Below are positions 1 through 54,915 of a DNA stretch of 64,000 bases, in pieces. The notes beneath the pieces are model-generated. The model had not been told where the DNA came from. It made no database searches and saw nothing but the letters and a program-made list of their open reading frames with translations. The stretch lies in the NCBI RefSeq assembly GCF_053078305.1, contig NZ_CP166879.1. One strand, written 5' to 3'. The first letter of the stretch is position 1. Every line of letters begins with the position of its first letter. A program made the translations under genes and the position numbers.

Positions 1-260
1 ATGGTTTCAACCATGTACCGGATGTGTTCTGCCATGCGCTCCTGAAACTCAACATCGTCATCAAACGCACGGGTAATGGCTTTTTTGCTGGCCCCGTGGC
101 GTTGCAAATGATCGATGCATAGCGATTCAAACAGGTGCTGGGGCAGGCCTTTTTCCATGTCGTCTGCCAGTTCTGCCTCTTTCTCTTCACGGGCGATCTG
201 CTGGTAGTGACGCGCCCAGCTCTGAGCCTCAAGACGATCCTGAATGTAATAAGCGTTCAT
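1..260 (-). CDS. gam: Host-nuclease inhibitor Gam (GamS form), 5' part only; gene continues beyond window start
   Basis: Minus-strand ATG at 260; translated N-terminus [34 protein letters not shown]... matches lambda GamS as recalled. Open-ended ORF, not in the supplied ORF track. Confidence 0.8.
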
Positions 261-335
261 GGCTGAACTCCTGAAAATGGCTGTGAAAAAATCGCCCGCG
301 GAATGCCAGGCTGATTCGGAAAACAGGAAAGGGGA

Positions 336-626
336 TTAGTGATTCAGACCGTTGCCGCGTCCGTCGAGAAAAACTTCCACGAGCAAGTCACGGGTATAAG
401 TGCGCTCAATGCCGCGATGCAGATAAAGTCGTCCGCGTAAATTAGCTGATGCAGTCCAGGTACCATCTTTGCGTTTGACCAGCATTCCTGGCATGACCGC
501 ACCGCGATTAACGGTCTGCGTTCCGTAATGTTGATGAACCATAAAAACTCCTGCCCGTAAGCTGGGCTGCTGAACATATAAAGACTTCTGCGCGTATTCA
601 GGCGGTGGATGGCCGCCGGTTGTCAT
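336..626 (-). CDS. Hypothetical early-left (pL-side) protein
   Basis: 96-aa ORF between gam and the OL-like operator region; coding-like composition; no family recognised. Confidence 0.3.
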   Translation of the reverse strand: MTTGGHPPPEYAQKSLYVQQPSLRAGVFMVHQHYGTQTVNRGAVMPGMLVKRKDGTWTASANLRGRLYLHRGIERTYTRDLLVEVFLDGRGNGLNH

Positions 627-823
627 AACTAAGCCGCCTCGTTGAAGCGACTAAGGTATGAAATGTTGAGTTGATTTCAGCTGGTCACACCGACGTTCAC
701 GCGTCCGTTTCATCCCTCGCACTCCCCGAAGCCTGCTGAAATTCAAGCTGCGGATCTAAGCGGTCATCGCAACGGTGAATCAGGTGGTTGCCGTATCGTT
801 GTGTTGTTGCGATATGGTGATAA

Positions 824-863
824 TAGCTATTGCTATTGGTAATATCAATACTTATTGCTATTA
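824..863. promoter_or_regulatory. Putative OL operator cluster (GCTATTGCTAT-type repeats)
   Basis: Motif tagctattgctattggtaatatcaatacttattgctatta closely mirrors the cI-cro intergenic motif at 3496-3529. Confidence 0.4.
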
Positions 864-986
864 GTTGATGTGTTTTGATATTAAATGTTTGATAGCAAAA
901 AGAATTAATTTTGTGACTTGCATCGCATAGCGATAACTGAAGTGAGGTCGTGGTGGTTTTTTGAACGGTGTGTGATGAGGGGAGGG

Positions 987-1012
987 CAAAAGAAAACCCG
1001 GCAAGGCCGGGT
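987..1012 (-). terminator. Intrinsic terminator downstream of the 1047-2623 operon
   Basis: On the minus strand: CCCGGC-ctt-GCCGGG hairpin followed by ttttcttttg. Confidence 0.45.
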
Positions 1013-1046
1013 TGTTGATAAGGTATGTCACATACAATAATAAATT

Positions 1047-1889
1047 TTAGACTTGAGGAAGTATTTTTTTTGCAAAATCAATAGTTTCTTTGTGGCTGGA
1101 TGCAGGTATATGATTTATTTTCTTAGCATCCATAGTTCTCTTTATGATGTCAATAACTTTGCTTTGGCCTGAGTTTGGTGATTCAGGGGTTTCAATTGTG
1201 AATAGAATGTCATCAAGTGAAAGCAGGTTTTCTTCTGCTGCTCGAGTTATTCTCATCACCCAAGTATCACTATGCTCCATCATTTTTCCGGGTTCAGTTT
1301 GAGTGAATGCCAGAGGTTTGATGGCACATTGGATCCTGTCGTGCTTCTTGGCGACCAATGGCATTGAGAACTTTGCGAAATACCCATCAATAGTTGCTTG
1401 TTTGAAGACGTTCTTCAATCCATCTATTCTATCGATACTGCGTTTTAGCTCTCTAGCTAGGACATCTTCACGGCGCTCTTTTGTGTAGTCAGCGTGGTTT
1501 ACATATTTATTGTAAATGCGAGCCAACTCTTCTTTCGGGTTTTCACTGAGGATAACTCTCGTAGAGCTGAACTGAAAAATTGATTCTTTTTTGTTTGTAA
1601 AATATCTGAAGAATTGTGCAAGTTGTTGATGTCCAACAATCTGGGTAGCATGCATTTTTGCGAACTGGAGTTCTCTTTGTATTGAGTCTTTTGCTACGGG
1701 AAAAATGCAATCATCATGGAAGAAATTCTTTACACGAGAGTCATTTCGCTTTGTGAGATGGAAGTCAAAGTAATTTTCTTTTGGCGCGCACAGAAGTACG
1801 CCTATGTTTGCGAACTCTTCAGTCTCCGCATAAGGCGCATAGCGAACGATGCTATATAGGCATGGAGTTGTCATTCTATTGCGCTCCAA
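1047..1889 (-). CDS. DUF3037-like protein (tentative); second gene of immunity-region cargo pair
   Basis: 280-aa ORF; N-terminal motif YSIVRYAPYAETEEFANIGV recalled as typical of DUF3037; overlaps the upstream gene by 19 nt (operon). Confidence 0.5.
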   Translation of the reverse strand: MERNRMTTPCLYSIVRYAPYAETEEFANIGVLLCAPKENYFDFHLTKRNDSRVKNFFHDDCIFPVAKDSIQRELQFAKMHATQIVGHQQLAQFFRYFTNKKESIFQFSSTRVILSENPKEELARIYNKYVNHADYTKERREDVLARELKRSIDRIDGLKNVFKQATIDGYFAKFSMPLVAKKHDRIQCAIKPLAFTQTEPGKMMEHSDTWVMRITRAAEENLLSLDDILFTIETPESPNSGQSKVIDIIKRTMDAKKINHIPASSHKETIDFAKKILPQV

Positions 1890-2623
1890 AATTCATCACA
1901 ATCACCTTTGCCTAGCGTAGTGCAGACAAAAGGTAAAAACTCATCATCTACTATCCACTCCTCTGGAATTTCGTCAAGGATAGCAGGAAGTTTGTGTAAA
2001 CTGTCAACGACCCTCTGGCGGTACTCTACGCGATCCACTAAATCATACTGCCATTTGCGGTTACCCGGGCCGTACACGTGTACAGAAAAATCTTCAGGCC
2101 CAGCATTCTGATCAAATGATAGATTATGGTCAATCAGATAATACTTATCGTTACTGATGTCATAAAGGATATTGACGTTTCCGCCTTTATCAGTAAGCGT
2201 TCTGTCTGCATTTAATATCCACTTATCAAAAGCATAGATTAATTTTTGCTGTTCGACTGGGATGATCATTTCGTTTCTTGACTGCGTAAACGTTAACGCG
2301 ATTGCACCGTCTATGAACAATGAAGCAAAAGCATACCCTGTACAAATTTGTTGCTGCAGATCAGGTGTGTACTCTACAAGTTCCTCTGGTACAAATACGA
2401 TTTTAAAGTCAGGTAAAGGAAGGCCGATATCATTAGCCAGGCACGCCGAAATGAACTCAGCTAAGAGATTTTTCGGGGGCATTGATGGTTTAGATTTCAA
2501 AACATACAACTGCCCATCATCACATTTGCAAAGAAATGGCTGAGTGGAACCTTCATTGATGCGACGTATTACTTCAACGACATTAGGTATTGCACTACTG
2601 CTGCTTGCTTCGCGCTCCATCAC
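1871..2623 (-). CDS. Small kinase-like protein (HipA-like / atypical Ser-Thr kinase fold, tentative)
   Basis: 250-aa ORF; beta3-like QLYVLKSKP with conserved Lys and catalytic-loop-like YYLIDHNLSFDQN; lies directly downstream of cI on the same strand, the position rexAB occupies in lambda. Confidence 0.45.
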   Translation of the reverse strand: MMEREASSSSAIPNVVEVIRRINEGSTQPFLCKCDDGQLYVLKSKPSMPPKNLLAEFISACLANDIGLPLPDFKIVFVPEELVEYTPDLQQQICTGYAFASLFIDGAIALTFTQSRNEMIIPVEQQKLIYAFDKWILNADRTLTDKGGNVNILYDISNDKYYLIDHNLSFDQNAGPEDFSVHVYGPGNRKWQYDLVDRVEYRQRVVDSLHKLPAILDEIPEEWIVDDEFLPFVCTTLGKGDCDEFWSAIE

Positions 2624-2758
2624 TAACCCTTACGTGATTCAAGTCTTCCACCTCATTACTCCGCATCTCAAAGAGCGGTTCTACACAGCGTGTTTAAAGA
2701 AAAACAACAGGCTTCATTGCTGTAGCTGTTTTTCCGTAATGTCACTTTTGGTCTCGTT

Positions 2759-3451
2759 TTAACCATGCTTCCTGTACGTCTGAGGCATGCTCCCGATGAC
2801 CTTACCGAAGATGAATACACGGTTCATCTCGTCTTTCTCGATTGGGTCCCATGGTGAATAGCTCTTGTTGTCAGAGATAACCAGCAGCTTATCCTTCATC
2901 ATTTGAAGGCGCTTAACATGGGCCGTATCGTCGTAAAGGAACGCATAAATCCCGTCGCCGTCGAAAGATTTGATGGCGATATCGACGAACAGCAAGTCAC
3001 CCGGTTCGATCGTTCCTGACATGCTGTCACCGCGTACGTTAATGATGCGGATATTTTCTGCCTTCCTGCCATCGAACATGTGACGAGCATCGTCAAACGA
3101 GTACTCAACCGAGCGTAGGACTTCTACAAACTCACGGTTGATGACACCCGGCCCAGCACTGACTTCTATATCAAGAACGTCAATCTTGAAGTATTTGGAA
3201 TGGTTGACAGTAGGCTTCCCTGATTGTTGACCGTCATTTCTCATCGGGCCTATGCCTGATGAGAGCCACTCTGTTCGAACACCCAATGCATTAGCTATTT
3301 CAACAATTTTTGTTGAGCCGCGCGCGTTGCCGCTTGTCAGTCTCCAGATTGTGGGTTGAGCTACGCCAGACGCCTTTGCAAGAGCGCCTTGAGACATTCC
3401 AGATTGTTCCATCGCTAGGTTTAAGCGATCAGCAAGAGTTTCTTTTTTCAT
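2759..3451 (-). CDS. cI: CI-type prophage repressor (HTH plus LexA-like S24 peptidase domain)
   Basis: N-terminal HTH (MSQGALAKASGVAQPTIWRL), Ala-Gly cleavage site (VSAGPG), GDSM Ser motif and downstream KR Lys. ATG at 3451 preferred over the TTG at 3487 used by the ORF track. Confidence 0.85.
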   Translation of the reverse strand: MKKETLADRLNLAMEQSGMSQGALAKASGVAQPTIWRLTSGNARGSTKIVEIANALGVRTEWLSSGIGPMRNDGQQSGKPTVNHSKYFKIDVLDIEVSAGPGVINREFVEVLRSVEYSFDDARHMFDGRKAENIRIINVRGDSMSGTIEPGDLLFVDIAIKSFDGDGIYAFLYDDTAHVKRLQMMKDKLLVISDNKSYSPWDPIEKDEMNRVFIFGKVIGSMPQTYRKHG

Positions 3452-3495
3452 AAGTTTTAATTTATACGCTTGCGTATTGATGGTCAAAACACGTT

Positions 3496-3529
3496 TTGCT
3501 ATTGCTATGGTTAATACGCATTGCTATTA
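3496..3529. promoter_or_regulatory. Putative OR operator cluster in the divergent cI/cro promoter region
   Basis: ttgctattgctatggttaatacgcattgctatta lies between divergent cI and cro and matches the OL-like motif at 824-863. Confidence 0.45.
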
Positions 3530-3558
3530 TTTATTTGTTGTAATACCAATAGGAATTG

Positions 3559-3789
3559 ATGATGACAAATCAAACCATTCAACTCGCAATCAGTATTACA
3601 GGTAGTCAAAAACGACTGGCAGATCTATGCGGTGTAGCCCAGCCCACTGTTTGGCGTTGGCTACACGGTGGCGGAATTGATGCCCGCTATGTAATGAAAA
3701 TTGTCTCAGCCACTGGTGGAAAGATTAAGCCAGCAGATATTCGTCCCGACCTCGCACCATTGTTTAACGCGAGTAATTCTGCCGCCTAA
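3559..3789 (+). CDS. cro: Cro-like HTH regulator
   Basis: Small HTH protein (RLADLCGVAQPTVWRW) transcribed divergently from cI. Confidence 0.6.
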   Translation: MMTNQTIQLAISITGSQKRLADLCGVAQPTVWRWLHGGGIDARYVMKIVSATGGKIKPADIRPDLAPLFNASNSAA

Positions 3790-3813
3790 TCTGCGGCGTT
3801 AACTGATAAGGCA

Positions 3814-4359
3814 ATGATTATGCAACCACTTACATACCAACAGACTAGCGGATTTAGCCCGACTGCGGTGATAAATCGTTCTCAAACAAAACAGGCGCCA
3901 GGCCACGAAAAAATCCGTGATGCCGTCCGCGCCTGGTCGGCTGCAGATAATCAGGATGTTGTTGCCGCACTCATTGTGAATGAGTATCGGGAGCAGGGCG
4001 GCGGCACCATCGATTTCCCTGATGATGTCAGCCGTGCACGCCAGAAGCTGTTCCGCTTCCTCGATAACAAATTCGATTCTGAAAAATACCGAAATAACGT
4101 GCGTGAACTGACCCCGGCAATTCTGGCGGTACTACCGCTGGAATATCGCGGCCACCTGGTTGTGCAGGATAGCTTCATGGCTCGGCTGGCTGAAATGGAA
4201 AAGGAACTCAGTGAGGCAAAACAGGCTGTCATTCTCAACGCACCACGCCACCAGAAACTGAAGGAGATGAGTGAAGGCATTGTGTCGATGTTTCGTGTGG
4301 ACCCGGATCTGGCTGGTCCACTGATGGCGATGGTCACCACCATGCTGGGGGTAATATGA
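3814..4359 (+). CDS. Hypothetical early regulator in the cII position
   Basis: 181-aa ORF between cro and the replication genes; assignment by position only. Confidence 0.35.
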   Translation: MIMQPLTYQQTSGFSPTAVINRSQTKQAPGHEKIRDAVRAWSAADNQDVVAALIVNEYREQGGGTIDFPDDVSRARQKLFRFLDNKFDSEKYRNNVRELTPAILAVLPLEYRGHLVVQDSFMARLAEMEKELSEAKQAVILNAPRHQKLKEMSEGIVSMFRVDPDLAGPLMAMVTTMLGVI

Positions 4360-4445
4360 CAGGTTCAGAAATGGCGAAAGCCGGTCTGCGCGAACATAAC
4401 CGACTTTCAGGTGCAAATCGTAACACACTCATTGCGGGAGGAATT

Positions 4446-6389: not shown

Positions 6390-6884
6390 ATGAGAAAATT
6401 TATTTTAGCCTTTGTCATAAGTGCCTCGTTTACAGCAAATGCTGGTGTAGAGAAGTTAGGGCCGTGGATAACAAAGTCTGAGATAAATAAAATGACTGAC
6501 CAGACTGACTTTGTGGCTCTTAATTTATCACCAGATTCATATAACAAAGCAGGTACTGATCGTGCAACTTCACTGGTGTTGCGTTGTAGTGATAACAAAA
6601 CAGATGCCTATTTATCATTCAATGATTATATGGGTTCGGACAACCCAAGAATTACAGTGCGGTTAGATGGCGGAAAGCCGGTCAAGAGTGTTTGGGGAGG
6701 TGGGGAAGGCGGTGATTCTGCATTTGCTCCACAACCAATACAATTTATAAAGACCTTGGCTAAGCATAAAAAAGCTATTTTTGGGTTTGAACCTTATGGA
6801 TCAACTATGCAAGTAGTTGAGTTTGACTTGTCTGAGATTGATAAGGTTGTGGAAAAAATTTCACAGTCTTGCAATTGGAAATGA
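6390..6884 (+). CDS. Secreted hypothetical protein (signal peptide), AT-rich moron
   Basis: N-terminal signal peptide MRKFILAFVISASFTANA; low-GC codon usage compared with flanking phage genes. Confidence 0.5.
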   Translation: MRKFILAFVISASFTANAGVEKLGPWITKSEINKMTDQTDFVALNLSPDSYNKAGTDRATSLVLRCSDNKTDAYLSFNDYMGSDNPRITVRLDGGKPVKSVWGGGEGGDSAFAPQPIQFIKTLAKHKKAIFGFEPYGSTMQVVEFDLSEIDKVVEKISQSCNWK

Positions 6885-7727: not shown

Positions 7728-8273
7728 ATGGATGCAGGGATAGCCTCAGTTGTCGCCGCAATTATTGCCGCAGCTGCAGCTGGAGTGGGGCTTGTTATCA
7801 CTAAGGAGAATAAAACATCTGAGTTTCGGCAAGCGTGGATAGATGGTTTAAGGGAAGAGTTAGCCGAATTGATGGAGAACTTTTTACAATTACGCACGAC
7901 TCCGCCTGAGAAGCTCCCTGAGGTGGCTGGAAAAATTTATTTTCTTTCCGCAAAAGTGAAGCTTAGGTTATCCAGTAAAAACTTAACTAATGAAGAGTCT
8001 CAGCTTTTGAAAATCATTGAGGATTACATTTTAAAAATGGATCGCTCATCTAACATTACAGATGTGGTCAGACAGTATTTTGAATATAGTTCCAGTGTTC
8101 TTAAAACTGAGTGGGAGAGAGTGAAGCGAGGCGAGAAAAAATACAGAGTCGCTATCACGGTTTCGTACTCAATATTGGTTTTTTTGGGGCTCTATTTTGC
8201 TTCACGTTTCATTCCAGCGATAAGTGAAAAAATCTTAGAAATTATAGAGTTTTTAAATTATTCGTTGTTCTGA
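7728..8273 (+). CDS. Hypothetical membrane protein (hydrophobic segments near both termini)
   Basis: 181-aa ORF; hydrophobic N-terminal (IASVVAAIIAAAAAGVGLVI) and C-terminal (VAITVSYSILVFLGLYFA) segments; RBS gagggg. Confidence 0.5.
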   Translation: MDAGIASVVAAIIAAAAAGVGLVITKENKTSEFRQAWIDGLREELAELMENFLQLRTTPPEKLPEVAGKIYFLSAKVKLRLSSKNLTNEESQLLKIIEDYILKMDRSSNITDVVRQYFEYSSSVLKTEWERVKRGEKKYRVAITVSYSILVFLGLYFASRFIPAISEKILEIIEFLNYSLF

Positions 8274-14921: not shown

Positions 14922-17850
<2,929 letters not shown>

Positions 17851-17977
17851 TTATGTCTATCATCTCCCCGTAGTTGTCCGCATCGTTCGCCAACTCCACT
17901 GAAACCCTTGCTGCGGCTGGAATGTCGTTTTCCATACTTTTGATGACCGTTCATCACACTTCCAGGTTTTCGCGGTT

Positions 17978-18050: not shown

Positions 18051-19292
18051 ATGGCTATTGAAAACAAACTCAGTGACAAACTGTTAAAGAGTCTTGTCGG
18101 AAAACGGCAGGACAAACAAAAAACAATAGCGGATGGGCGCGGGTTGTCTGTGCGTGTAAGCATGGTTGGGGGGATCAGCTTTGTTTTTTACTATCGTCTT
18201 GGTGGCAGGGAATCCCCTCCGGTATGGCTTACACTTGGGCGCTATCCTGATATGTCTCTTGCAACAGCCAGGCGCATGCGTGATCAGTGCCGTGAGTGGC
18301 TGGCTGAAAATCTGGACCCCCGCAGGCAAATAAAACTTGCCGCCGAAAAAACCATGCAACCAGTGACCGTAAGGGATGCGCTGTTTTACTGGTACGACAA
18401 TCACGCCACAACAGCCAGAAAAGAGCATGAATATTTAATAAAACGATTTGAAAAGCATATCTTCCCCTATATCGGTGATATGGCTATAGAACAGTGCAAA
18501 TTACACACATGGCTTGCCGTCTTTGACAGGATCAAAAAAAATGCGCCTGTTATGTCTGGTGCAATTTTTCTTGATATCAAACAGGCGTTGCGTTTTTGTC
18601 GCGTCAGGCAATACATCGCGTGCGATCCCTTTGGCGATATTAACGTAAGTTATGTCGGGCGCTCATCCGGTATAAGGGATCGCGTTCTTAATATCAATGA
18701 AACAGCGGATGTATGGTCTTATGCTTACGGTAATAATTTGCTGACACTGTCATCAATACATAACAGAAGAATAATGGTTATCTGCCTGGTGTTTGGTTGC
18801 CGTCAGCAGGAGGCGAGGTTATCCACATGGGACGAATGGGATTTAAAAAACTGGGTATGGACAGTCCCAAAAGAGCACAGCAAAAACAAGGAGGCCATAG
18901 TAAGGCCTGTTCCTGACGGCATAAAACAATGGCTCGTTAATCTTTACGCAGAAACAAAAAATCGCGGTTATGTTGTCGGTTGTGCTTTGCAAAGGGCGAC
19001 AATAACAGGGGCTGCAAACAGAATATGCAGGCGTCTTGGTCATGATATTAATGGCTTGTGGTGCATACATGATTTCAGGCGCACATTTTCCACTGCGCTT
19101 AATGATATGGGGGCGGATCCTTATATTGTCGAACTTCTTTTAGGTCATAAAGTGAAAGGGGTTGCCGGTGTTTACAATAAAAGCAGGCATATAAAGAAAA
19201 AACTTGAGGTGCTTAATATGTGGGTTAATTACCTTAATACGATAGCAGGATTTAACAACAACGTTATCGAGCTTAATAAAGAGGTGGTGTGA
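18051..19292 (+). CDS. int: Tyrosine integrase (P4-type, N-terminal arm-binding DUF4102-like domain)
   Basis: 413-aa ORF; N-terminal region resembles P4-family integrases; C-terminal catalytic motifs HDFRRTF, LLGH and VYNKS (Tyr). Confidence 0.9.
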   Translation: MAIENKLSDKLLKSLVGKRQDKQKTIADGRGLSVRVSMVGGISFVFYYRLGGRESPPVWLTLGRYPDMSLATARRMRDQCREWLAENLDPRRQIKLAAEKTMQPVTVRDALFYWYDNHATTARKEHEYLIKRFEKHIFPYIGDMAIEQCKLHTWLAVFDRIKKNAPVMSGAIFLDIKQALRFCRVRQYIACDPFGDINVSYVGRSSGIRDRVLNINETADVWSYAYGNNLLTLSSIHNRRIMVICLVFGCRQQEARLSTWDEWDLKNWVWTVPKEHSKNKEAIVRPVPDGIKQWLVNLYAETKNRGYVVGCALQRATITGAANRICRRLGHDINGLWCIHDFRRTFSTALNDMGADPYIVELLLGHKVKGVAGVYNKSRHIKKKLEVLNMWVNYLNTIAGFNNNVIELNKEVV

Positions 19293-20551: not shown

Positions 20552-20647
20552 GGAGAAAGAGCGGCGCGTATGCACCGCTAAGGAGTTTATTTTCATGACT
20601 TATGCAGCTTTCAATCTTAGCACCGCCGTAGCTGGTGGACAAGGCTA

Positions 20648-20875
20648 TCAGCCAGGCGGTCGGTTTTTAGTGGCTTTTAACCGCCGTGGGTATTTCTCGA
20701 CAAAATCTTCAAGGGCAAATTTTTCTGGTGGCACTAAGCGCGGCGCTGGTGGTGGTATTTTTGTTCTGGTTAGTTCTTCCTCAAGTCTGGCGCAGGCTTC
20801 TAACTGCCTTTGCCGGATGATTTCATCATCTTGCGTTTGCGTGTCTTGTATTGGTGATAGTGTGTTGTTGGTCAT
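20648..20875 (-). CDS. Hypothetical protein (island, leftward operon)
   Basis: 75-aa acidic ORF downstream of the RHH gene on the minus strand; weak RBS. Confidence 0.35.
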   Translation of the reverse strand: MTNNTLSPIQDTQTQDDEIIRQRQLEACARLEEELTRTKIPPPAPRLVPPEKFALEDFVEKYPRRLKATKNRPPG

Positions 20876-20932
20876 GATACTGCCCTGTAAAGCAATGCGC
20901 CGGAGTACCTCACGCCACGGCGCTGATAGTGA

Positions 20933-21238
20933 TTATTCTGATTCTTGGGTCTTGCGACGCTGGAGTTCTTCGCGTGCAACGGTGACAAGTTGCCCGATTT
21001 CTTCCGCTGCTTTGATGCCGATTTGTTCGACCTTAGCCAGAGCATCCAGTGAAGACACAAGGGGATTTTCTCCGCTGCCTTCTGCCTGGCGGCGGGCGAT
21101 TTCACCGCGCATGGCGGTTACTATGAATCCGGCGTTGCTTTCACCGTCCAGTTTTACGGATTCCATGCCTTCAATAACATCATGCGGGATCCGAGCTGTC
21201 AGTGATTGTGATTTTGCGTTTTTTGAACCTGTAGCCAT
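20933..21238 (-). CDS. Ribbon-helix-helix (CopG/Arc-like) putative regulator, divergent from the island rightward operon
   Basis: SLTARIPHDVIEGMESV resembles an RHH beta-strand plus helix; ATG 21238 with RBS gaggat preferred over the TTG at 21253. Confidence 0.45.
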   Translation of the reverse strand: MATGSKNAKSQSLTARIPHDVIEGMESVKLDGESNAGFIVTAMRGEIARRQAEGSGENPLVSSLDALAKVEQIGIKAAEEIGQLVTVAREELQRRKTQESE

Positions 21239-21797
21239 CTGTAATCCTCTCAATGAAAGTGTAAGACAATATACACATAAAAAGTCTTACATAAAAGCAT
21301 TGACATGTAAGCCACCTATAAATAAAGTTACTTACACCTTGTTAATGCAAGGTGCAGAAACGACGAAACCCGGCAGTGCGCTAACACTAACCGGGCTTCT
21401 AACCACCAACGATAGAAAGCGTATCGAGGTAGCTATGAGAAATCATACCACACACCCGCAAGGGCGGGACTCGCACAACCTGAATAAATACATCTGGCGT
21501 TTTCTGGCCCGAAAAAACCAGTTGATCGCCAGTGTCGAAAATAGCTATGATTCCCGCGCACCTCATAAAACGGGTGCCGGGATTGGCGTCCTGGGCAAAA
21601 CTGAAGCGCATAACACGCGCCCCGCGTGTTTTTTTGTGCCGCATAGTCACACCTTATCAATGGTGGGCTGTACGGGGGCGGAGCAATCCGCGCCGGTTTC
21701 TTCAGTGTCCGGTTACGCCAACCCTGTACAGTCCGCCACCAGCGAAATTGGCGTTTCCGGTGGCGGTTATCTTAACCACACTGAGGAGGCTGCCAAC

Positions 21798-21989
21798 ATG
21801 GCTACTATCCCTACCCTTGTACATTCTCAAACCGCCTTTCTCTGGCGCTTTATCATCTTTGGCGCGTCAGACCATCAAATCATCCACGTCACCGCCTGGA
21901 CGGAACGCGAAGCGCGTAGCCGTTGCCCGTCCGGTTGTGTTGCTGTATTCGCCGCCCGTATTCGTCAGGAGGTGTGCCATGTGCAATAA
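21798..21989 (+). CDS. Icd-like small protein (host cell-division inhibitor family, tentative)
   Basis: 63-aa ORF with strong RBS gaggagg; MATIPTLVHSQTAFLWRFIIFGASDHQIIHV... recalled as resembling Icd-like proteins of P4-type islands; it is the only plausible part of ORF 20595-21989. Confidence 0.4.
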   Translation: MATIPTLVHSQTAFLWRFIIFGASDHQIIHVTAWTEREARSRCPSGCVAVFAARIRQEVCHVQ

Positions 21990-22671: not shown

Positions 22672-22971
22672 ATGAAACTTAAATATCCTGGCTTAACTGC
22701 CAGTGGCAACACTCACCCTAAATTTACGCGCGGTGATATTTACCGCGACCAGTACGGCGGCACGGTAATGATTAAGGGCGTGGCGGGACGGTGCGTAACT
22801 TACCGCCGTGAAGGCTACGAATATGATTGCGTGATGCCTGTTTATCAGTTCCGGCGTGATTTTTCTCTGGTACAGACCGCGCCGCATAACGTGCCCACCA
22901 GCAACGCCAGGGCACGGGCAAACATCCAGAAGCTGAAAACCATGATTAACGGATTCAGGGGTAAAAAATGA
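22672..22971 (+). CDS. Hypothetical protein
   Basis: 99-aa ORF; 3' end overlaps the rep start by 4 nt. Confidence 0.45.
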   Translation: MKLKYPGLTASGNTHPKFTRGDIYRDQYGGTVMIKGVAGRCVTYRREGYEYDCVMPVYQFRRDFSLVQTAPHNVPTSNARARANIQKLKTMINGFRGKK

Positions 22972-24377
22972 AACTGGCACCGAACGTAAAACGATTACCG
23001 AAAGATAAATACACCGAAGCGGTTATTTTTGCGGGTATTGATGCTCACTCATTCGCAGAGCATTACATCATTGCACAGGCCAAAAAAGCAGGCGATCCAG
23101 TCCCTCCCGTTTATCTGGGGCGTTATCAGTTAAGCGAACTGGATAACCTCCAGATTGTTGATGATGGGCGATACAGGGCGACGGTGATACGCGCCGGAAA
23201 TATTGAAGAGCCGCAGCTGTTAACCATCGCCACGAAACTGGCGAGCGCCGGAGTCCAGGAGGCGCGGCTACTTTCTGAAAATTTCGAATTGCTGGAGGAA
23301 TGGAGCGACCAGCTTCCACGGCTTAGGGAGGCATGGGAACGCGGGGAAAGCCTGGTCATGAAAAAAATTCCCCAGCGAAAAACCACGCTACCGATGAGCG
23401 TTGGATCTACCGGATACGACACACAGCTTGATTACGTGGTAAAGGGGATTATTCCGGCATCGTCGCTTTGCAGCATATACGGGGCGAGCGGTTCCTATAA
23501 ATCATTCCTTGCCGGATCGTGGGCGTGTCACGTTTCCACGGGCCGCCAGTGGGGAGGCCGCAGGGTGGCGCATGGCGCTGTTCTCTATGTGGTTGGTGAA
23601 GGCGGTATCGGCGTTCCGCGTCGTGTAAAAGCCTGGGAGGTTGTGCACGGTGAGCAGGTGAAAAATCTGTATCTGGTAAACCGTCCCATCTTTCCGGCTG
23701 TCCCGCTTGATGTTGATGAACTGGTTATTGCTGCCAGTCAGGTGGAGAGGGAAACGGGTAAACCTGTTCGCATGATTATTCTGGACACGCTGGCGCGTTG
23801 CTTTGGCGGCAATGATGAAAATGACTCCCGCGACATGGGGGCATTTATCCGTGGTTGTGACGAGCTTAAACGGCGCACAGGGGCTACGGTGCTGGTGGTT
23901 CACCATTCCGGCAAGGATGAAACAAAGGGGGCGCGTGGTTCCAGTGCATTTCGTGCATCACTGGACGCTGAATACCGGATACGCAGGGAGGACGCAGGAA
24001 GCGAAGCGCTGGTTATCTCATGCACCAAAATGAAGGACGCGGAGGAACTCAAAGAGGCTGCCTATGATTTGCGGGTGGTGGAGCTTTTTACCGACGCTGA
24101 CGGGGAGTTAATTACGTCGCTGGTGGTGGTGGATAAGCCGCGCCCTCCCGTTGAACTGGAGCGCATCGAGGAGGCAGGCAACAAGACGGAAAACCATACC
24201 GCGCTATGGGGGTGCATCCGTTCACGCACACAGAACGGCGACAAGTGCACGATCCCGCTGTTACGTGACGATATGAAAAAGCTGGGGTATGACACAAAAC
24301 ACCTTAAACGATGGTTAGCCAAACTGGAAAAAGACGACGTGATCTACATTGACGGTGATGATGTAGGACCACTGTAA
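22968..24377 (+). CDS. rep: Replication initiator/helicase (RepA-like AAA_25 RecA-fold ATPase with N-terminal primase-C-like region)
   Basis: Walker A-like SIYGASGSYKSFLA, Walker B-like RMIILDTLAR, and TVLVVHHSGKD; followed directly by an iteron array. Confidence 0.75.
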   Translation: MKLAPNVKRLPKDKYTEAVIFAGIDAHSFAEHYIIAQAKKAGDPVPPVYLGRYQLSELDNLQIVDDGRYRATVIRAGNIEEPQLLTIATKLASAGVQEARLLSENFELLEEWSDQLPRLREAWERGESLVMKKIPQRKTTLPMSVGSTGYDTQLDYVVKGIIPASSLCSIYGASGSYKSFLAGSWACHVSTGRQWGGRRVAHGAVLYVVGEGGIGVPRRVKAWEVVHGEQVKNLYLVNRPIFPAVPLDVDELVIAASQVERETGKPVRMIILDTLARCFGGNDENDSRDMGAFIRGCDELKRRTGATVLVVHHSGKDETKGARGSSAFRASLDAEYRIRREDAGSEALVISCTKMKDAEELKEAAYDLRVVELFTDADGELITSLVVVDKPRPPVELERIEEAGNKTENHTALWGCIRSRTQNGDKCTIPLLRDDMKKLGYDTKHLKRWLAKLEKDDVIYIDGDDVGPL

Positions 24378-25760: not shown

Positions 25761-25967
25761 ATGGCTGAAGAGAAAAAAGGCGGTGTTTCGGTGTACATAA
25801 GCCCCGAAATCGTGGAGGTGCTCAAGCAGCGCCACAAAAAAAACTATGAGGCTGGCGTAGCGGCTGGACTGGATCCGCTGATGACGCCGGAGCCGTCGAT
25901 AGGTTCACTTGTGCGCTCTTATTTACTTGCGGCGCTTGGGATGCATAAAAATTATGGTGGTGAATAA
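25761..25967 (+). CDS. Hypothetical small protein (first gene of island morphogenetic operon)
   Basis: 68-aa ORF with RBS agagga; stop overlaps the capsid gene start. Confidence 0.4.
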   Translation: MAEEKKGGVSVYISPEIVEVLKQRHKKNYEAGVAAGLDPLMTPEPSIGSLVRSYLLAALGMHKNYGGE

Positions 25968-27022
25968 TGACAGTAAAAGCAATGGCACTTACAACTAACC
26001 AGCTTTTCGCGTACCTGAATCGCGGGGATATTGCAGAATTTAAATTCAGTCCGCTGTTTACCACGCTGTTTTTCCCGAACGTGGCGACCTTCAACACCCA
26101 GAACATCATGCTGGACACCCTGGACATTGAAGAGGTTACGATGTCAGCGTTCTGTTCGCCTATGGTGGGTAGTCAGGTCCAGCGCGATAAAGGGTACGAA
26201 ACCAGCACGATTAAACCAGGCTACATGAAACCCAAACACGAAATCGATCCAACAAAAACCATCATGCGCATGGCTGGAGAAGATCCGGCACAGCTTAACG
26301 ACCCTACCTACCGCCGTATGCGCCTGATTACTGGCAACATGCGCCGCCAGATAAACGCCATTAAAGCGCGCGTGGAATGGCTGGCGGTGAATGCGATAAC
26401 GACCGGAAAAAACATCATTGAGGGCGAAGGCATAGAACGCTATGAAATCGACTGGAAAATACCGGAAAACTGCATCATAGAGCAGGCCAAGGGTAAAAAA
26501 TGGTCCGAGCATGATAAAGATATTTACGATCCAATCTATGACATCGAACTATACGCAGATCAGGCAGGTTGCCCCGCCAACGTCATGATTATGGGCGCTG
26601 AGGTATGGCGCACGTTACGCAGCTTTAAAAAATTCCGCGAACTGTACGATCTTTCCCGTGGTTCAGAATCCGCCGCAGAACTGGCCTGTAAAAACCTGGG
26701 TGAAGTAGTGAGCTTTAAAGGCTATCTGGGCGATATTGCCCTTATCGTCTATTCCGGCAAATACACTGACAGCGACGGTACCGAAAAATATTTCCTTGAG
26801 CCTGATTTGCTGGTCCTGGGTAACACCAACAATAAAGGGCTGGTGGCCTATGGTGCGATTATGGATCAGGAAGCGGTAAGAACGGGCGCAACGCAAAACA
26901 TGTTCTACCCGAAAAACTGGATTGAAGACGGCGATCCGGCGATTGAGTACGTTCAGACGCACAGCGCACCGCAGCCGGTACCGGCAGATATTCGCAAATT
27001 TGTTACCGTCAAAATTGCTTAA
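25967..27022 (+). CDS. Major capsid protein homologue (diverged lambda gpE-like, HK97 fold)
   Basis: Collinear with the helper E at 32160-33185: FKFSPLFTTLFF / FKFDPLFLRLFF, KPGYMKPKHEIDP / TPGYVKPKHEVNP, DPTYRRMRLITGNMRRQINAI / DPAYRRRRIIMQNMRDEELAI. Confidence 0.8.
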   Translation: MTVKAMALTTNQLFAYLNRGDIAEFKFSPLFTTLFFPNVATFNTQNIMLDTLDIEEVTMSAFCSPMVGSQVQRDKGYETSTIKPGYMKPKHEIDPTKTIMRMAGEDPAQLNDPTYRRMRLITGNMRRQINAIKARVEWLAVNAITTGKNIIEGEGIERYEIDWKIPENCIIEQAKGKKWSEHDKDIYDPIYDIELYADQAGCPANVMIMGAEVWRTLRSFKKFRELYDLSRGSESAAELACKNLGEVVSFKGYLGDIALIVYSGKYTDSDGTEKYFLEPDLLVLGNTNNKGLVAYGAIMDQEAVRTGATQNMFYPKNWIEDGDPAIEYVQTHSAPQPVPADIRKFVTVKIA

Positions 27023-27895: not shown

Positions 27896-28001
27896 TTTCG
27901 GGTGCTGGTGGTGGTTTTGTTTTTCGCTCTATCTCTATGAATAAAAAGGGAAAGATAAAACCAATACACCAACCTGAAACATTACTTAAGTGGGGATATT
28001 G

Positions 28002-28544
28002 ATGAAATCGCACCTGATGAACAAAAAAAACATGGCGCAAAGCTGCCGTGTAAGTGCGACAGCGTTCGACAAGTGGGGAGTGACTCCCGTTGAACGTAAA
28101 GGACGCGAGGCTTTTTACGATGTTGCCAGCGTGATAGACAATCGGGTAAGCAATGCAATTAACCAGGTTACAAACGACAAAGGCGAGATTGATGATGATG
28201 AACTCTTACGAGTCAGGATCAGATTACTGACCGCCCAGGCTGAGGCGCAGGAACTTAAAAACGAGCGCGATCGCGGTGACGTAATTGATACTGAGTTTTG
28301 CCTGTACGCGCTTTCAAAGCTGGCGAGTCAGATTTCTTCAATCATGGACAGTTTGCCGCTTACCATGCAAAGGCGCTTCCCGCAGATTACTCCCGCTATG
28401 CTGGATGGGCTTAAAAGGGAAGTGGTTAAAGCCTGTAATGCCAGTGCCACAGTTGCCGACAACCTCCCGAAGATACTGGCTGATTACCTGATGGAAACTA
28501 CCGGAGACGTACCGGAGAAGTTGCTACAGAAGAAAGGCGAGTAA
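28002..28544 (+). CDS. Terminase small subunit homologue (Nu1-like, divergent N-terminal DNA-binding region)
   Basis: C-terminal two-thirds collinear with Nu1 (LTAQAEAQELKNERDRGDVIDTEFCLYALSKLASQISSIMDSLPLTMQRRFPQI vs LTRAQADAQELKNARDSAEVVETAFCTFVLSRIAGEIASILDGIPLSVQRRFPEL); N-terminal ~50 aa diverged. Start 28002 chosen by RBS. Confidence 0.75.
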   Translation: MKSHLMNKKNMAQSCRVSATAFDKWGVTPVERKGREAFYDVASVIDNRVSNAINQVTNDKGEIDDDELLRVRIRLLTAQAEAQELKNERDRGDVIDTEFCLYALSKLASQISSIMDSLPLTMQRRFPQITPAMLDGLKREVVKACNASATVADNLPKILADYLMETTGDVPEKLLQKKGE

Positions 28545-29610: not shown

Positions 29611-29688
29611 CTCCTTTAAACGATAGGTTTGAGCATTCGTAATGTACTGTTTTTAAATTTTATTTTTTCCTGTCTTTTCATAAAAGCC

Positions 29689-48600: not shown

Positions 48601-48682
48601 CACCATCACCGTTAACGCTGCTGGTAACGCGGAAAACACCGTCAAAAACATCGCATTTAACTATATTGTGAGGCTTGCATAA
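45650..48682 (+). CDS. stf: Side tail fiber protein Stf (long form) with Ala/Ser/Thr-rich repeat region
   Basis: N-terminus (MN)[35 protein letters not shown]... and C-terminal His-rich HTHS/GAHAH repeats match lambda-type Stf as recalled; probable start at 45656. Confidence 0.85.
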
Positions 48683-49266
48683 TGGCATTCAGAATGAGTG
48701 AACAACCACGGACCATAAAAATTTATAATCTGCTGTCCGGAACTAATGAATTTATTGGTGAAGGTGATGCATATATTCCGCCTCATACAGGTCTGCCAGC
48801 AAACAGTACCGATATTGCACCGCCAGATATTCCGGCTGGTTTCGTGGCTGTTTTCAACAGTGATGAGTCATCGTGGCATCTCGTTGAAGATCATCGGGGT
48901 AAAACGGTTTATGACGTGGCTTCCGGCGACGCGTTATTTATTTCTGAACTCGGCTCATTACCGGAAAATGTCACCTGGTTATCCCCGGAAGGGGAGTTTC
49001 AGAAGTGGAACGGCACAGCCTGGGTGAAGGATACGGAAGCAGAAAAACTGTTCCGGATCCGGGAGGCGGAAGAAACAAAAAACAGCCTGATGCAGGTAGC
49101 CAGTGAGCATATAGCGCCGCTTCAGGATGCTGTGGATCTGGAGATCGCAACGGAGAAAGAAACCTTGTTGCTGGAAGCCTGGAAAAAGTATCGGGTGTTG
49201 CTGAACCGTGTTGATACATCAACTGCACCTGATATTGAGTGGCCTACGAACCCTGTCAGGGAGTAA
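48682..49266 (+). CDS. tfa: Tail fiber assembly protein Tfa
   Basis: 194-aa protein [41 protein letters not shown]... matches lambda Tfa as recalled. Confidence 0.9.
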
Positions 49267-50534: not shown

Positions 50535-52019
50535 TTATTGTATTTCTGCTTCAGAATTTCCTGGGCAGTATATATTTTCTGGTTTTTGTGGAGTGATCAG
50601 GTGATGTACAACTGCTTTATCTACACATAAATTAACTCCGGTGAGAGCTAATGTATGCCCATCACCATTTATTGTTAGTAACGGGCTGGAAAATTTCTCT
50701 GCCATCTTACGGGCATTAATCCAGGGCGTTGTTGGGTCGTATTTGTGTGCTACAAACAGTAAACCAGAGGGCAGAACAGTATTTTTCAGGCGAGTTTTGT
50801 TCAGGTCGCTATGTATTGGCCATAATTCACAAAAATCAGGTGAATCGGAACGTCCATTGTCAAAGTTAATAGCCGGGAAGGCATTCGCAAGAGCGTCTTT
50901 TCGGGATTTTCGCTCTTCTGGTGTTAATTGCTCATCCCCCTGATCTACACAGAGGATTACCCCCGAAGCATCGCTTGACTCTTCTGAGGCTATCGGAGCA
51001 CTGAGCGCAGTTTCAATTTCATTACTGACAATCCCCTGAGAGAACTGGCGTATGGCAGTTGCAAGGGTTGGCCATGATGAACGCCATAGCAGAAGGTCTG
51101 TTGTTAATGATATGAGTTCATCTGAAGATATATTTTCTCCCTTACTGTCTAATAAAGGTTTGTGATGTAATTTTGATAATAGCTCATGGAACTGAGTTAT
51201 TGCCTTATCTCTGTCTGAAGAAAGCGGGCAACTTTTTGTACGCGCACACCAGGATGCAAAGCGATCAAACGTTTCCTGATAACTCTGTGCCTGTTTGAGT
51301 TGCCATGTGAAGTTGTCCTCCAGGTCATCGATATCGACGACTCCATCAAGAACGATAGATCTTACGTTGTAGGGAAAACGTTCTGCATATAAGGCTGCAA
51401 TTTGAGTTCCATACGAATACGCCACGGCTGTCAGTTGTTTATCCCCCAAGGCTTGCCTAATACGATCAATATCGTATACAGCCTCGTTAGAGCCGATATG
51501 GCGAATGACTTCGGCTCCGGTATTATGGATACAGGCATTAATTTTATTTAATACTTGTTGCTTTTCGGTTATGTTTTCCTGAGTCTCTGTATCTGATTGC
51601 CGGCAGTTTATTGTCGGAGTGGACTGTCCGACGCCTCGAGGATCAAATCCAATAATATCCCATGACTCACGAAGATTTGTGACTGGCCAGTCAAAGTTAA
51701 TATAAGGATTTATGCCTGGTAACCCGGGACCACCACTTATTATCAGGATACTTCCTTTATGCTTGCTTTTTGCCGGCAATTTTGTCAACGCTAGTTTGAC
51801 TTGTGATTTTTTTTCATAAGAAGCATCTCCGCCTGTGTCTGTATATTTTAATGGAACAGACAAATAACCACATAGTAAGTCAGGAGACGGTTTTTCCTCA
51901 CCAAACCAGTGGTTGAATTGACTGGCCATACAGGATTGCCACTGTATCTGCTGGGCAGATACGGTTACTGGTAGAAGTAACGTTAAAACAACTTTGAAAT
52001 GAGTAATTATTTTTCGCAT
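50535..52019 (-). CDS. Secreted alpha/beta-hydrolase-fold protein (S33-peptidase-like, tentative)
   Basis: Signal peptide MRKIITHFKVVLTLLLPVTVSA; nucleophile-elbow-like AYSYGTQ; 494 aa; AT-rich cargo. Confidence 0.55.
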   Translation of the reverse strand: MRKIITHFKVVLTLLLPVTVSAQQIQWQSCMASQFNHWFGEEKPSPDLLCGYLSVPLKYTDTGGDASYEKKSQVKLALTKLPAKSKHKGSILIISGGPGLPGINPYINFDWPVTNLRESWDIIGFDPRGVGQSTPTINCRQSDTETQENITEKQQVLNKINACIHNTGAEVIRHIGSNEAVYDIDRIRQALGDKQLTAVAYSYGTQIAALYAERFPYNVRSIVLDGVVDIDDLEDNFTWQLKQAQSYQETFDRFASWCARTKSCPLSSDRDKAITQFHELLSKLHHKPLLDSKGENISSDELISLTTDLLLWRSSWPTLATAIRQFSQGIVSNEIETALSAPIASEESSDASGVILCVDQGDEQLTPEERKSRKDALANAFPAINFDNGRSDSPDFCELWPIHSDLNKTRLKNTVLPSGLLFVAHKYDPTTPWINARKMAEKFSSPLLTINGDGHTLALTGVNLCVDKAVVHHLITPQKPENIYCPGNSEAEIQ

Positions 52020-52205
52020 TGTGTCTCTGAATATCGGAATAAAGATAAGATTTGAATATATTGAGGTCTTGTGTTGCGGTAAGAGATTACACGTTATGAC
52101 ATAGGTTAAATGCTTACAAAATTAGTGGATATTGCCTACTTGTAACTGTAAACAAATTCCCCGGGGTTATACAATACCACCGGGGAGAAAATCTGGTTAA
52201 CTTCG

Positions 52206-53159
52206 TTAAAAGGTGTACTTAAGACCAGCAGTAGTGATGAAGTTATAGTTTTCTATGCCTGCACCATTTTTGCTGTAGTCTGAAGTGTTATCATTGTGAT
52301 CATAAAGTGAAGTATTACCTTTTTTATTCGTAACCCGATTCCATGCGCCTTCAACATAAACCTTTGCGTTAGGTGTTACGTAATAACCTGCATTGACTGC
52401 AACAGAATAGTAATTTTGGTCTTTGACTTTACTGCGATAAGTGATTCTTTTTCCTGGGTCATAGTGCTCATCGTTATCAGATGCTTCCACCCAGCCGCTG
52501 TATTTAAATGTGCCACCTAGCTCAAAATCTTCATAACGATAACTTCCAGTCAAGCCAATGTAGGGCATTTTAAAACGTTGTTTGTAGCCGATTGCTCTTT
52601 CTCCATTCGGGAAGGAGCCGATATCATCTCTGAATCCCTCCTCAGAACTGTAGATATAGGAACCACCTCTGGCTGTAAAGCTATAACGGCTTTCCTGATA
52701 TCCGGCCATGAGTCCCAGGCGGTAATTGGGTTCGTTGAGGAGCCAGCCTTTGATATTCAGATCAAATTCGTTGGCATAATTGAGTTGTGTATCAGGGTGC
52801 CTACTTTCATCTGTCCAGGTTCCGGGGTTACTGGAATCCATCCAGTCCTGATCGACCATATTGCCACCTCGGCTGCCGAGAGTAGTCCAGCCCGCAGCCC
52901 CAATAGATATCTGGGGCATCAAATCCCAATTAATTGCACCTTTAATAATTGCAGCGTTATTGAATTTCCAGTCGAGTTGACTGACTTTTCGGCCTCCTTC
53001 TTCAGCTAGATAAACGCGCTCTTTTGTTTTTCCGCTCAGAGTTCCAAGACTAATGTCCGCATTTATGTTGTCAGGAGTAAACGATATAGTCTCGGTAGAA
53101 GCAAAAGAGCTGATCGCAATAGGGGTTGTCAGAACTATTCCCAGAAGTTTCGCCCGCAT
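52206..53159 (-). CDS. ompT: Omptin-family outer-membrane protease (OmpT-like)
   Basis: 317-aa protein MRAKLLGIVLTTPIAISSFASTETISFTPDNINADISLG... near-identical to E. coli OmpT as recalled. Confidence 0.9.
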   Translation of the reverse strand: MRAKLLGIVLTTPIAISSFASTETISFTPDNINADISLGTLSGKTKERVYLAEEGGRKVSQLDWKFNNAAIIKGAINWDLMPQISIGAAGWTTLGSRGGNMVDQDWMDSSNPGTWTDESRHPDTQLNYANEFDLNIKGWLLNEPNYRLGLMAGYQESRYSFTARGGSYIYSSEEGFRDDIGSFPNGERAIGYKQRFKMPYIGLTGSYRYEDFELGGTFKYSGWVEASDNDEHYDPGKRITYRSKVKDQNYYSVAVNAGYYVTPNAKVYVEGAWNRVTNKKGNTSLYDHNDNTSDYSKNGAGIENYNFITTAGLKYTF

Positions 53160-53531
53160 AAAAGTTCTCCATTCAATCGTTTTAATGATTGAATATGTAT
53201 TTTTTATATCTAACTTAATGAGTCAATCACATATTGCTCCACTGTTTATATTTTGTTTAGTATTGAATGATTATCACAATGCGCTATCTGTTTTTGGTTT
53301 AATTATCTGTTATTGTTTTATGTTGCGGTTTTACTGTGTGGTTTTTTATGCTTTTGTGGTGTTTTTATCTATTTAAGCGCCATGCCTTTAAAGGCATATA
53401 AGCGAAAATAGCATGAGGTTTATCCTCAATTGCTATGTTTTTTAGTACAAAAAAGAGGGACAAAACTGAGACACACATAGCTTTGTACTGGATTGCAAGG
53501 CTTTGTGCTCTTCGATAGTGGTTAAGGCGGA

Positions 53532-54725
53532 TTACTCCACCTTCCCATCAAGCCAGTCCGCCCACCATTGCATCATTTCTCTGCGCTTATCGAGATACTG
53601 AGCATGGTTGTAAATTCCACGTACAGATCCGCCGTTGGCATGTGCCAGTTGCACTTCAATGGCGTCGGCAGGCCATTCGTGCTCGTTCATAATCGTGCTG
53701 AATTCATGCCTGAATCCGTGACCGCTTTCCAGACCTTCATAGCCGATTTGTTTGATCACAAGTAGCACCGCGTTCTCGCAGATTGGCTTCTTCTTATCGT
53801 TGCGCCCGGAAAAAACAAACTCTGATACTGGTTTAGTGATTGAGCTTAGTGTAGTGAGAAGTTCAACCACCTGGTCTGACATCGGGACAACATGAATTTT
53901 GCGTCCCTTCATCACATTGGCGTCGATGGTGATAATCCTGTTTTCAAAATCGACGTTCTTCCATAGCATGGAACGAAGCTCTTTTGTTCTGAGGGCTGTG
54001 TAGCGTAAAACTTTGGTCGCAATGAGCGATACGATGCTTCCTGAAAATGTTGCCAGTGCTTTGTTAAATGCCGGGATCTGGTCTGCAGGAAGAAACGGGA
54101 AGTTTTTCTTGCGGTATCCCTTCATGGCGTCAGCAAGGTCAGGTGCCGGGTTATATTTAGCCCTACCAGTGACAATAGCGTAACGGAAAACCTCGCCGCA
54201 TCTTCTGCGGGCTTTGTTGGCTCGCTCCATTGCACCGCGATCTTCAAATCTGCGGATTACTTCCAGCAGTTGCATCGGCTCAATATCCTGAATTTCAAGG
54301 CCGCCGATGATAGGTAAAATGTCGTCATCAAACATTTTTGCAAGTTCAGTTGCATAGCCTACTGACCAGACTTGCTTCTTGTGCTCGTACCATTCCTTGT
54401 AAATCGCACTAAAGGAATTGTTGTTAGACGAAGCCTTTTTCGCTTTTACCGGATCGATGCCAACCGAGATGTCTTTCCTCGCGGTCCATGCTTTATCTCT
54501 TGCCTCCTGCAAAGTCATAAGCGGATATTTTCCTACGGTCAGGATTTTCTCCTTACCGTCAATCTTGTAGCGAAGCTGCCATACCTTTTTCCCTGACACA
54601 GGGACATAAAGGTACAGGCCATTACCATCGAGTAGGCGGTATGGTTTTTCTTTCGGCTTTGCTGCTTCAATCTGCTTAACGGTGAGCATGGGTAAAAATC
54701 CGGTGGGTAAAATTATTTTATCCAC
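53532..54725 (-). CDS. intS: Tyrosine integrase, IntS (CPS-53)-type, adjacent to argW
   Basis: 397-aa ORF; sequence from LTVKQIEAAKPKEKPYRLLDGNGLYLYVPVSGKK... matches K-12 IntS as recalled. Confidence 0.85.
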   Translation of the reverse strand: MDKIILPTGFLPMLTVKQIEAAKPKEKPYRLLDGNGLYLYVPVSGKKVWQLRYKIDGKEKILTVGKYPLMTLQEARDKAWTARKDISVGIDPVKAKKASSNNNSFSAIYKEWYEHKKQVWSVGYATELAKMFDDDILPIIGGLEIQDIEPMQLLEVIRRFEDRGAMERANKARRRCGEVFRYAIVTGRAKYNPAPDLADAMKGYRKKNFPFLPADQIPAFNKALATFSGSIVSLIATKVLRYTALRTKELRSMLWKNVDFENRIITIDANVMKGRKIHVVPMSDQVVELLTTLSSITKPVSEFVFSGRNDKKKPICENAVLLVIKQIGYEGLESGHGFRHEFSTIMNEHEWPADAIEVQLAHANGGSVRGIYNHAQYLDKRREMMQWWADWLDGKVE

Positions 54726-54840
54726 TTTTTACCCGTCATGGAGTGCGGCTGTCAACGATCTGAAGCGAACCATGACGAACTGTGAATCTACGGAAGGCTT
54801 GATATTCAGGGGATTTTGCGGACTGGTACGGATGGAGGCG

Positions 54841-54915
54841 AACTGATAAATGGTGTCCCCTGCAGGAATCGAACCTGCAATTAGCCCTTAGGAGGGGCTC
54901 GTTATATCCATTTAA
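54841..54915 (-). tRNA. argW: tRNA-Arg (CCU anticodon), argW
   Basis: Minus-strand sequence GTCCTCTTAGTTAAATGGATATAACGAGCCCCTCCTAAGGGCTAATTGCAGGTTCGATTCCTGCAGGGGACACCA; cloverleaf with CCT anticodon and CCA end. Confidence 0.9.

Follow-up and report, generated by a model that had tools for sequence, protein, structure and literature searches.

A probable second HipAD anti-phage allele, located in a lambdoid immunity region

Two genes that lie directly downstream of a cI-type repressor gene in a 64,000-nucleotide stretch of contig NZ_CP166879.1 ("the window") are very likely another instance of the HipAD anti-phage system (DS-6; PDC-M66), which a lambdoid prophage here carries in its immunity region as lysogen-expressed cargo. 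The pair is already known: it has been published, named, deposited in GenBank, and experimentally validated as a near-identical allele. An earlier note, made from the sequence alone, did not recognize the pair as a named system. This needs correcting, as the genes are annotated as HipA and HipD in phage PhiR5_1, were validated as DS-6/HipAD, and are represented in PADLOC by PDC-M66A and PDC-M66B. What the window adds is a second natural HipAD allele, which is tied to a different repressor specificity.

Identity of the gene pair

The nearest match among phage genomes (by megablast) is Escherichia phage PhiR5_1 (PV340545.1), with 94% nucleotide identity over the pair. Its record shows a "HipA toxin" and a "HipD antitoxin" directly after cI and ahead of Kil, Gam, Bet, and Exo. 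At the protein level, the window's HipA is identical to that of PhiR5_1 at 239/249 positions (96%) and HipD at 271/275 positions (99%). The primary HipAD paper is reportedly Brenes & Laub 2025 (Cell Host Microbe 33:1004). We cross-checked that the HipA and HipD of PhiR5_1 are the DS-6 sequences in Table S8 of DeWeirdt, Mahoney & Laub (Science 2026; PMC13092281), where DS-6A is WP_000389051.1 and DS-6B is WP_000210934.1; in the same paper, DS-6 is renamed HipAD.

DS-6, together with no more than 200 bp of upstream DNA, was placed in pCV1 (a low-copy vector with no promoter before the insert) and introduced into E. coli MG1655 (PMC13092281). Against phage Bas1, the -log10 efficiency of plating (EOP) was 3.9 and 5.2, while for the D139A mutant it was 0.88, so defense was largely abolished (Table S7 of PMC13092281). 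AlphaFold3 predicts that DS-6A and DS-6B form a complex (PMC13092281).

The window's HipA differs from the validated protein by ten substitutions (window residue first: R3C, E4V, S8N, V82I, T85S, M118T, A130V, D206N, D226E, and G237D), and HipD differs by four (H39Q, A128S, T193A, and S260N). None of these 14 substitutions hits a position that is invariant in the families, and all of the family-invariant residues are intact in the window alleles of both proteins. Relative to the validated allele, hipA has a dN/dS of 0.11 and hipD one of 0.04, which implies that both genes are under purifying selection. Phage resistance has been published for the 96%/99% identical allele, which defends against Bas1 (PMC13092281), and the window allele would probably confer it as well. 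To that extent, the suggestion in the earlier note that the pair is an anti-phage system holds up.

PADLOC's models also hit the two adjacent genes, with PDC-M66A matching HipA (E = 4.7e-15) and PDC-M66B matching HipD (E = 9.8e-16); these are HMM E-values and not a formal PADLOC call with its score thresholds. With E-values of only about 1e-15, the PDC-M66 models evidently derive from a clade more remote from the window pair.

The locus and its transcription

hipA (1871–2620, minus strand) encodes a Ser/Thr-kinase-like toxin of the HipA_2 family, with 249 amino acids from the ATG at 2620. There is an in-frame GTG at 2623. hipD (1047–1874, minus strand) encodes the DUF3037 partner, or antitoxin, with 275 amino acids from the ATG at 1874. 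We took both ATG starts from the annotations of near-identical public records. The program that listed open reading frames instead chose upstream GTG or TTG codons (1871–2623 and 1047–1889, both on the minus strand). With the annotated starts, the real overlap between hipA and hipD is 4 nucleotides, rather than the 19 nucleotides in that list. The overlap is an ATGA (1871–1874, minus strand; read from the sequence), which contains the stop codon of hipA and the start codon of hipD, an arrangement for translational coupling.

The first gene of the leftward unit that includes hipA and hipD is the cI-type repressor (2759–3451, minus strand), which has a helix-turn-helix domain and an S24 autopeptidase domain. 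It matches phrog_4 (E = 2.5e-69) as well as the CI-like phrog_6201, and the annotation of isolate F467 lists it as an XRE family regulator. Opposite cI, in divergent orientation, are a cro-like gene and cII/O/P-type genes. The leftward unit is followed by an intrinsic terminator (985–1013, minus strand): a hairpin at 1013–995, AACCCGGCCTTGCCGGGTT, has an 8-bp stem with 6 GC pairs and leads into the T-run TTCTTTTGCC. The hairpin starts 34 nucleotides past the stop codon of hipD. This terminator would end the leftward transcript of the immunity region, analogous to tImm of lambda. Thus, as the earlier note had described, two overlapping minus-strand genes follow cI in the orientation of cI and are themselves followed by a terminator.

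The operators place the pair more precisely. The OR region (3480–3532) is a 53-nucleotide repeat, with 74% identity to 814–866, and contains half-sites of the TTGCTATTG type (family D1). Its direct-repeat partner, the OL region (814–866), carries a PL-like promoter (848–820, minus strand; 10/12 consensus positions). Because the repeats lie at 814–866 and 3480–3532, hipAD falls within the immunity region, flanked by cI and OL. Together with the positions of cI and the terminator, the OL/OR repeat bears out the idea that the pair occupies the slot where lambda has rexAB.

We infer that hipAD is transcribed along with cI from PRM, and also from a weak promoter of its own. A consensus scan found a PRM-like promoter (3459–3487, minus strand; TTGACC-17-TAAATT, 9/12) and a PR-like promoter (3502–3530). 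The -10 element of the PRM-like site ends 8 nucleotides ahead of the ATG of cI. The message of lambda cI is leaderless, and this consensus match suggests that the same may be true of the cI mRNA here. The spacer between cI and hipA (2621–2758, minus strand; 138 nucleotides) has a Shine-Dalgarno-like AAGGG 9 nucleotides before the ATG of hipA. In this spacer, the consensus scan found no sigma-70-like promoter with a match of at least 9/12 and no terminator-like site. The lack of a terminator between cI and hipA, combined with the PRM-like site 8 nucleotides before cI, suggests a leaderless cI-hipA-hipD message. On the other hand, DS-6 was active from the promoterless pCV1, which implies some promoter activity within the 138-nucleotide spacer, even though the scan finds no promoter there. 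Promoter-like matches also occur inside hipA (2133–2105, 1977–1950, and 1901–1873); across the region, the scan found 8 promoter-like matches versus 6.7 expected from shuffled sequences, which is the chance level. The predicted RNA fold of the spacer is ordinary, with a hairpin that is no more stable than those of shuffled sequence (z = -0.89), and no Rfam family matches within 1–4400.

HipA is a kinase-like protein

The earlier note considered the upstream protein to be kinase-like, and both its sequence family and its predicted structure agree. HipA matches nearly all of HipA_2 (Pfam PF20613; E = 2.6e-76, far beyond chance), with residues 15–248 aligning to model positions 1–239 of 240. It also matches phrog_3162, a PHROG family of unknown function (E = 5e-80). 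No NCBIfam model matches HipA or HipD, and searching the PDB by sequence with either protein gave only noise (E of 0.3 or higher). The AlphaFold2 model of HipA is confident (pLDDT 89.4, pTM 0.88) and has a kinase fold. Among PDB structures, its best Foldseek matches are PI4KII-alpha, CtkA from H. pylori, and HipA, with E-values from 3e-6 to 2e-4.

The invariant residues of HipA include T26, P28, K42, D132, N137, D139, R140, G147, N148, N150, D164, H165, and N166. K42, in the motif QLYVLK, had been picked out as a kinase feature, and its invariance fits a role as the ATP-binding lysine. The motif IDHNLSFDQN had been described as similar to a catalytic loop, but it is more probably the equivalent of DFG. 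Going by the motifs of PI4KII, LNADR...GGN of HipA would be the catalytic loop and LIDHNLSF the metal-binding motif of the IDNG/DFG type. The invariant IDHN (D164-H165-N166) is most likely the DFG-type metal-binding motif. D139, which is within LNADR, is present in the window's HipA and is invariant across 45 homologues. This tentative assignment of LNADR as the catalytic loop is consistent with the published work, in which D139 was the catalytic residue selected for mutation.

A proposed mechanism

The pair most likely works as a toxin-antitoxin-like kinase switch. HipD, whose synthesis would be translationally coupled to that of HipA, would bind HipA and silence it as long as the cell is uninfected. 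When a sensitive phage infects, the kinase would be released or activated, and its activity, which would depend on the catalytic Asp139, would stop productive infection. Most probably, given the analogy to other HipA proteins, HipA phosphorylates an essential host factor, which would lead to cell arrest and abortive infection. Canonical HipA acts on GltX and HipT acts on TrpS; by analogy, the substrate of the window's HipA may also be a translation factor.

A homologous pair has been studied genetically. Khan et al. (PLoS Biol 2025; PMC12548924) found that the HipA-like/DUF3037 pair from the Retron-Sda1 operon still protects when the retron parts are absent. Defense was lost when the kinase gene was deleted, whereas deletion of the DUF3037 gene proved toxic (PMC12548924). 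These authors assigned the pair to PDC-M66 and described it as similar to DS-6 (PMC12548924). Since deleting the DUF3037 gene is toxic without phage, the kinase appears to have a host target that can halt growth.

We also considered that the same HipAD system might be non-abortive, with the kinase directly phosphorylating and inactivating either a protein of the phage or a host factor that only the phage needs, and with infected cells surviving. Cell death or growth arrest upon infection is absent from the published data (the primary HipAD paper aside), and the large drop in EOP against one phage family fits a specific target (PMC13092281). However, this alternative does not sit well with the toxicity, in the homologous system, of deleting the DUF3037 partner when no phage is present (PMC12548924), and HipA's kinship in fold and family to the HipA toxins also favors a host target. 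We consider it unlikely.

HipD and its C-terminal domain

The earlier note associated the N-terminus of the partner with DUF3037, and this is indeed what Pfam gives: residues 12–130 of HipD match PF11236 with E = 2e-23, far beyond chance. HipD also matches phrog_5137, a PHROG family of unknown function. HipD has an N-terminal DUF3037 domain (about residues 1–126), a flexible linker, and a C-terminal domain (about residues 135–275). The C-terminal domain is probably restriction-endonuclease-like; the Foldseek hits of HipD, tentatively placed in this domain, are weak, with nothing at E ≤ 0.001. The invariant residues of HipD include P14, E20, F21, N23, G25, R47, E136, P172, I185, K186, P187, and W205. 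Where PD and (D/E)xK would be expected in a nuclease, the family has P172-L173 and A184-I185-K186. We judge that an active nuclease site is unlikely, since the acidic residues of PD/(D/E)xK are not conserved. For the same reason, we read the C-terminal domain as a degenerate module that is probably DNA-binding and not a nuclease. AlphaFold3 predicts that DS-6B contacts DNA (PMC13092281), which fits this reading.

It is conceivable, but on balance doubtful, that the C-terminal domain is a DNA-binding sensor that autoregulates the operon and also detects phage DNA or a replication intermediate, thereby releasing HipA. If so, having the pair within the cI transcript would couple the dosage of the kinase to the lysogenic state.

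A different division of labor, with HipD as a nuclease effector of the PD-(D/E)xK type that HipA regulates or for which HipA acts as the sensor, seems very improbable. HipD is far larger and more conserved than typical antitoxins (recall its dN/dS of 0.04), and DefensePredictor considers HipD to be defensive and not HipA, with log-odds of 6.4 versus 0.38 (PMC13092281). But HipD lacks the canonical acidic residues and its structural similarity to nucleases is weak, as described above. Furthermore, the genetics of the homologous pair, where losing the DUF3037 gene is toxic and losing the kinase gene abolishes defense (PMC12548924), are the reverse of what a HipD effector predicts.

Distribution of the pair and its slot

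Among 5,426 complete E. coli genomes, 283 contain the pair at 95% nucleotide identity or above. It is always on the chromosome and is present once per genome. The window allele (at least 99% identity) was found in just one of the 5,426 genomes, that of isolate F467 (99.9%), while the other 282 have the allele that is about 96% identical. In 276 genomes, the match spans at least 80% of window positions 300–4400, so the pair is in the same slot with the same flanks.

The flanks of the slot (627–1046 and 2621–2758) are conserved, and sister prophages share the kil/OL and cI/cII flanks. Between these, the sister prophages carry a Ser/Thr kinase with a hypothetical protein; a SIR2 protein; ImmA/IrrE with a DUF4411 protein; a three-gene module of a hypothetical protein, MqsA, and SecB; or nothing. 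DUF7946, ASCH, and DUF6932 proteins are also listed in the cI-to-OL slot. Such varied cargo between conserved flanks indicates that the cI-to-OL slot is a hotspot for cargo exchange. As a swap site, it can be mined for more defense cargo. Several of the alternative cargos may be uncharacterized defense modules.

More distant homologues (25–55% identity) are found in Enterobacterales, in Pseudomonas and its relatives, and in sphingomonads. We examined three distant contexts: a defense island of Stutzerimonas with MmeI-type, NERD, GmrSD, and AAA_15 genes; an integrase island of Sphingomonas; and a P4-like satellite of Yersinia. In every one, a HipA_2 gene is followed by a DUF3037 gene with a 4-nucleotide overlap. 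The two genes thus travel together both in E. coli and in distant islands and a satellite; the earlier note had named co-occurrence in other genomes as a check on its proposal.

These contexts also bear on whether the pair has any role in defense here. It might instead serve the prophage as an addiction or stabilization module, or its kinase might tune lysogeny and induction, as the pair adjoins cI within the immunity operon, the homologous pair has toxin-antitoxin-like genetics (PMC12548924), and a kinase module of Pf prophages (KKP) reportedly controls both lysogeny and defense (PMC11341870). We give this little credence: the 96%/99% identical allele protects when it is the only insert of a plasmid and the host lacks the prophage (PMC13092281); the pair also occurs outside of prophage immunity regions, in defense islands and in a P4-like satellite; and the same slot in sister prophages holds other defense-type cargo such as SIR2.

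Other elements in the window

The portal gene of the prophage is split into an N-terminal fragment (17021–17902) and a C-terminal fragment (29629–30462). An element of about 11.7 kb separates the fragments and encodes an integrase of its own (18051–19292), a repressor-like protein, a primase/helicase-like protein (22968–24377), a major head protein (25967–27022), and a small terminase subunit (27990–28544). This looks like a capsid-forming satellite of the PICI type that inserted into the portal gene of its helper. Presumably, it is this satellite that led the earlier note to call the prophage a "helper." This layout is likewise annotated in E. coli A5 (NZ_CP028769.1). Within the satellite-like element, at 21558–21743, Rfam identifies isrK (66 bits) and the C4 antisense RNA (77.6 bits) side by side, at the level of the gathering thresholds. 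These matches overlap the 3' part of the open reading frame at 20595–21989, which has repressor-like PHROG hits.

Past the replication genes, at the place that emrE and ybcK occupy in DLP12-type relatives, there are two accessory (moron) reading frames on the plus strand. The first (6390–6884; 164 amino acids) belongs to phrog_1848, a family of unknown function, and its N-terminus resembles a signal peptide. The second (7728–8273; 181 amino acids) has no match in PHROG or PADLOC.

In the tail-fibre-assembly reading frame at 48682–49266, Rfam has a full-length match to IS009 (49025–49223; 218 bits). Further to the right, a tRNA-Arg(CCT) (54851–54925, minus strand) adjoins a reading frame (53532–54725) that is a putative integrase by position only. 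A nearby reading frame at 50535–52019 (494 amino acids) matches PADLOC's PDLC01094, "C3a206, TAP-like protein" (E = 4.5e-57). To the right of the prophage, the region 50535–54925 may thus represent another integrated island.

Comparison with known systems

The closest system is HipAD/DS-6 of PhiR5_1, which shares with the window the gene order, the ATGA overlap, the site directly downstream of cI, and D139. Homology between PhiR5_1 and the window stops within cI, at about window position 3211, and the N-terminus of the repressor, the operators, and cro are different. Because the break lies inside cI, the same hipAD module has been joined to different immunity specificities.

PDC-M66, including the pair from Retron-Sda1, has the same two domain families, and its kinase behaves as a toxin that the DUF3037 protein neutralizes. 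However, the relationship is distant, and PDC-M66A aligns only to residues 16–171 of HipA. Also, the Retron-Sda1 pair is part of a retron operon, and the window pair belongs to the immunity region of a prophage.

RexAB of lambda is similar by position. Both pairs are two-gene, lysogen-expressed exclusion cargo in the slot between cI and OL/PL, in the orientation of cI, and with a terminator after them. We found no Rex match for HipA or HipD in Pfam, PHROG, NCBIfam, or PADLOC, and we rejected homology to RexAB. RexA is a sensor and RexB is a membrane channel. In contrast, the window encodes a soluble kinase and a DUF3037 protein, with no kinship to the Rex proteins in sequence or domains.

Finally, canonical HipBA and HipBST also have a toxin with a HipA/PI3-4K-like kinase fold that is neutralized by a co-encoded protein. 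Compared to the HipA proteins of Shewanella and E. coli, the similarity of the window's HipA model is at the level of the fold only (Foldseek E = 1.8e-4). The window's HipA is a HipA_2 protein of about 250 amino acids without the HipA N-terminal domain, its partner is a DUF3037 protein and not the helix-turn-helix protein HipB, and the order of the genes is reversed, with the toxin gene first. We do not place the pair in canonical HipBA: HipA_2 is the sole Pfam match of the kinase, and instead of an upstream helix-turn-helix antitoxin, it has a DUF3037 partner downstream.
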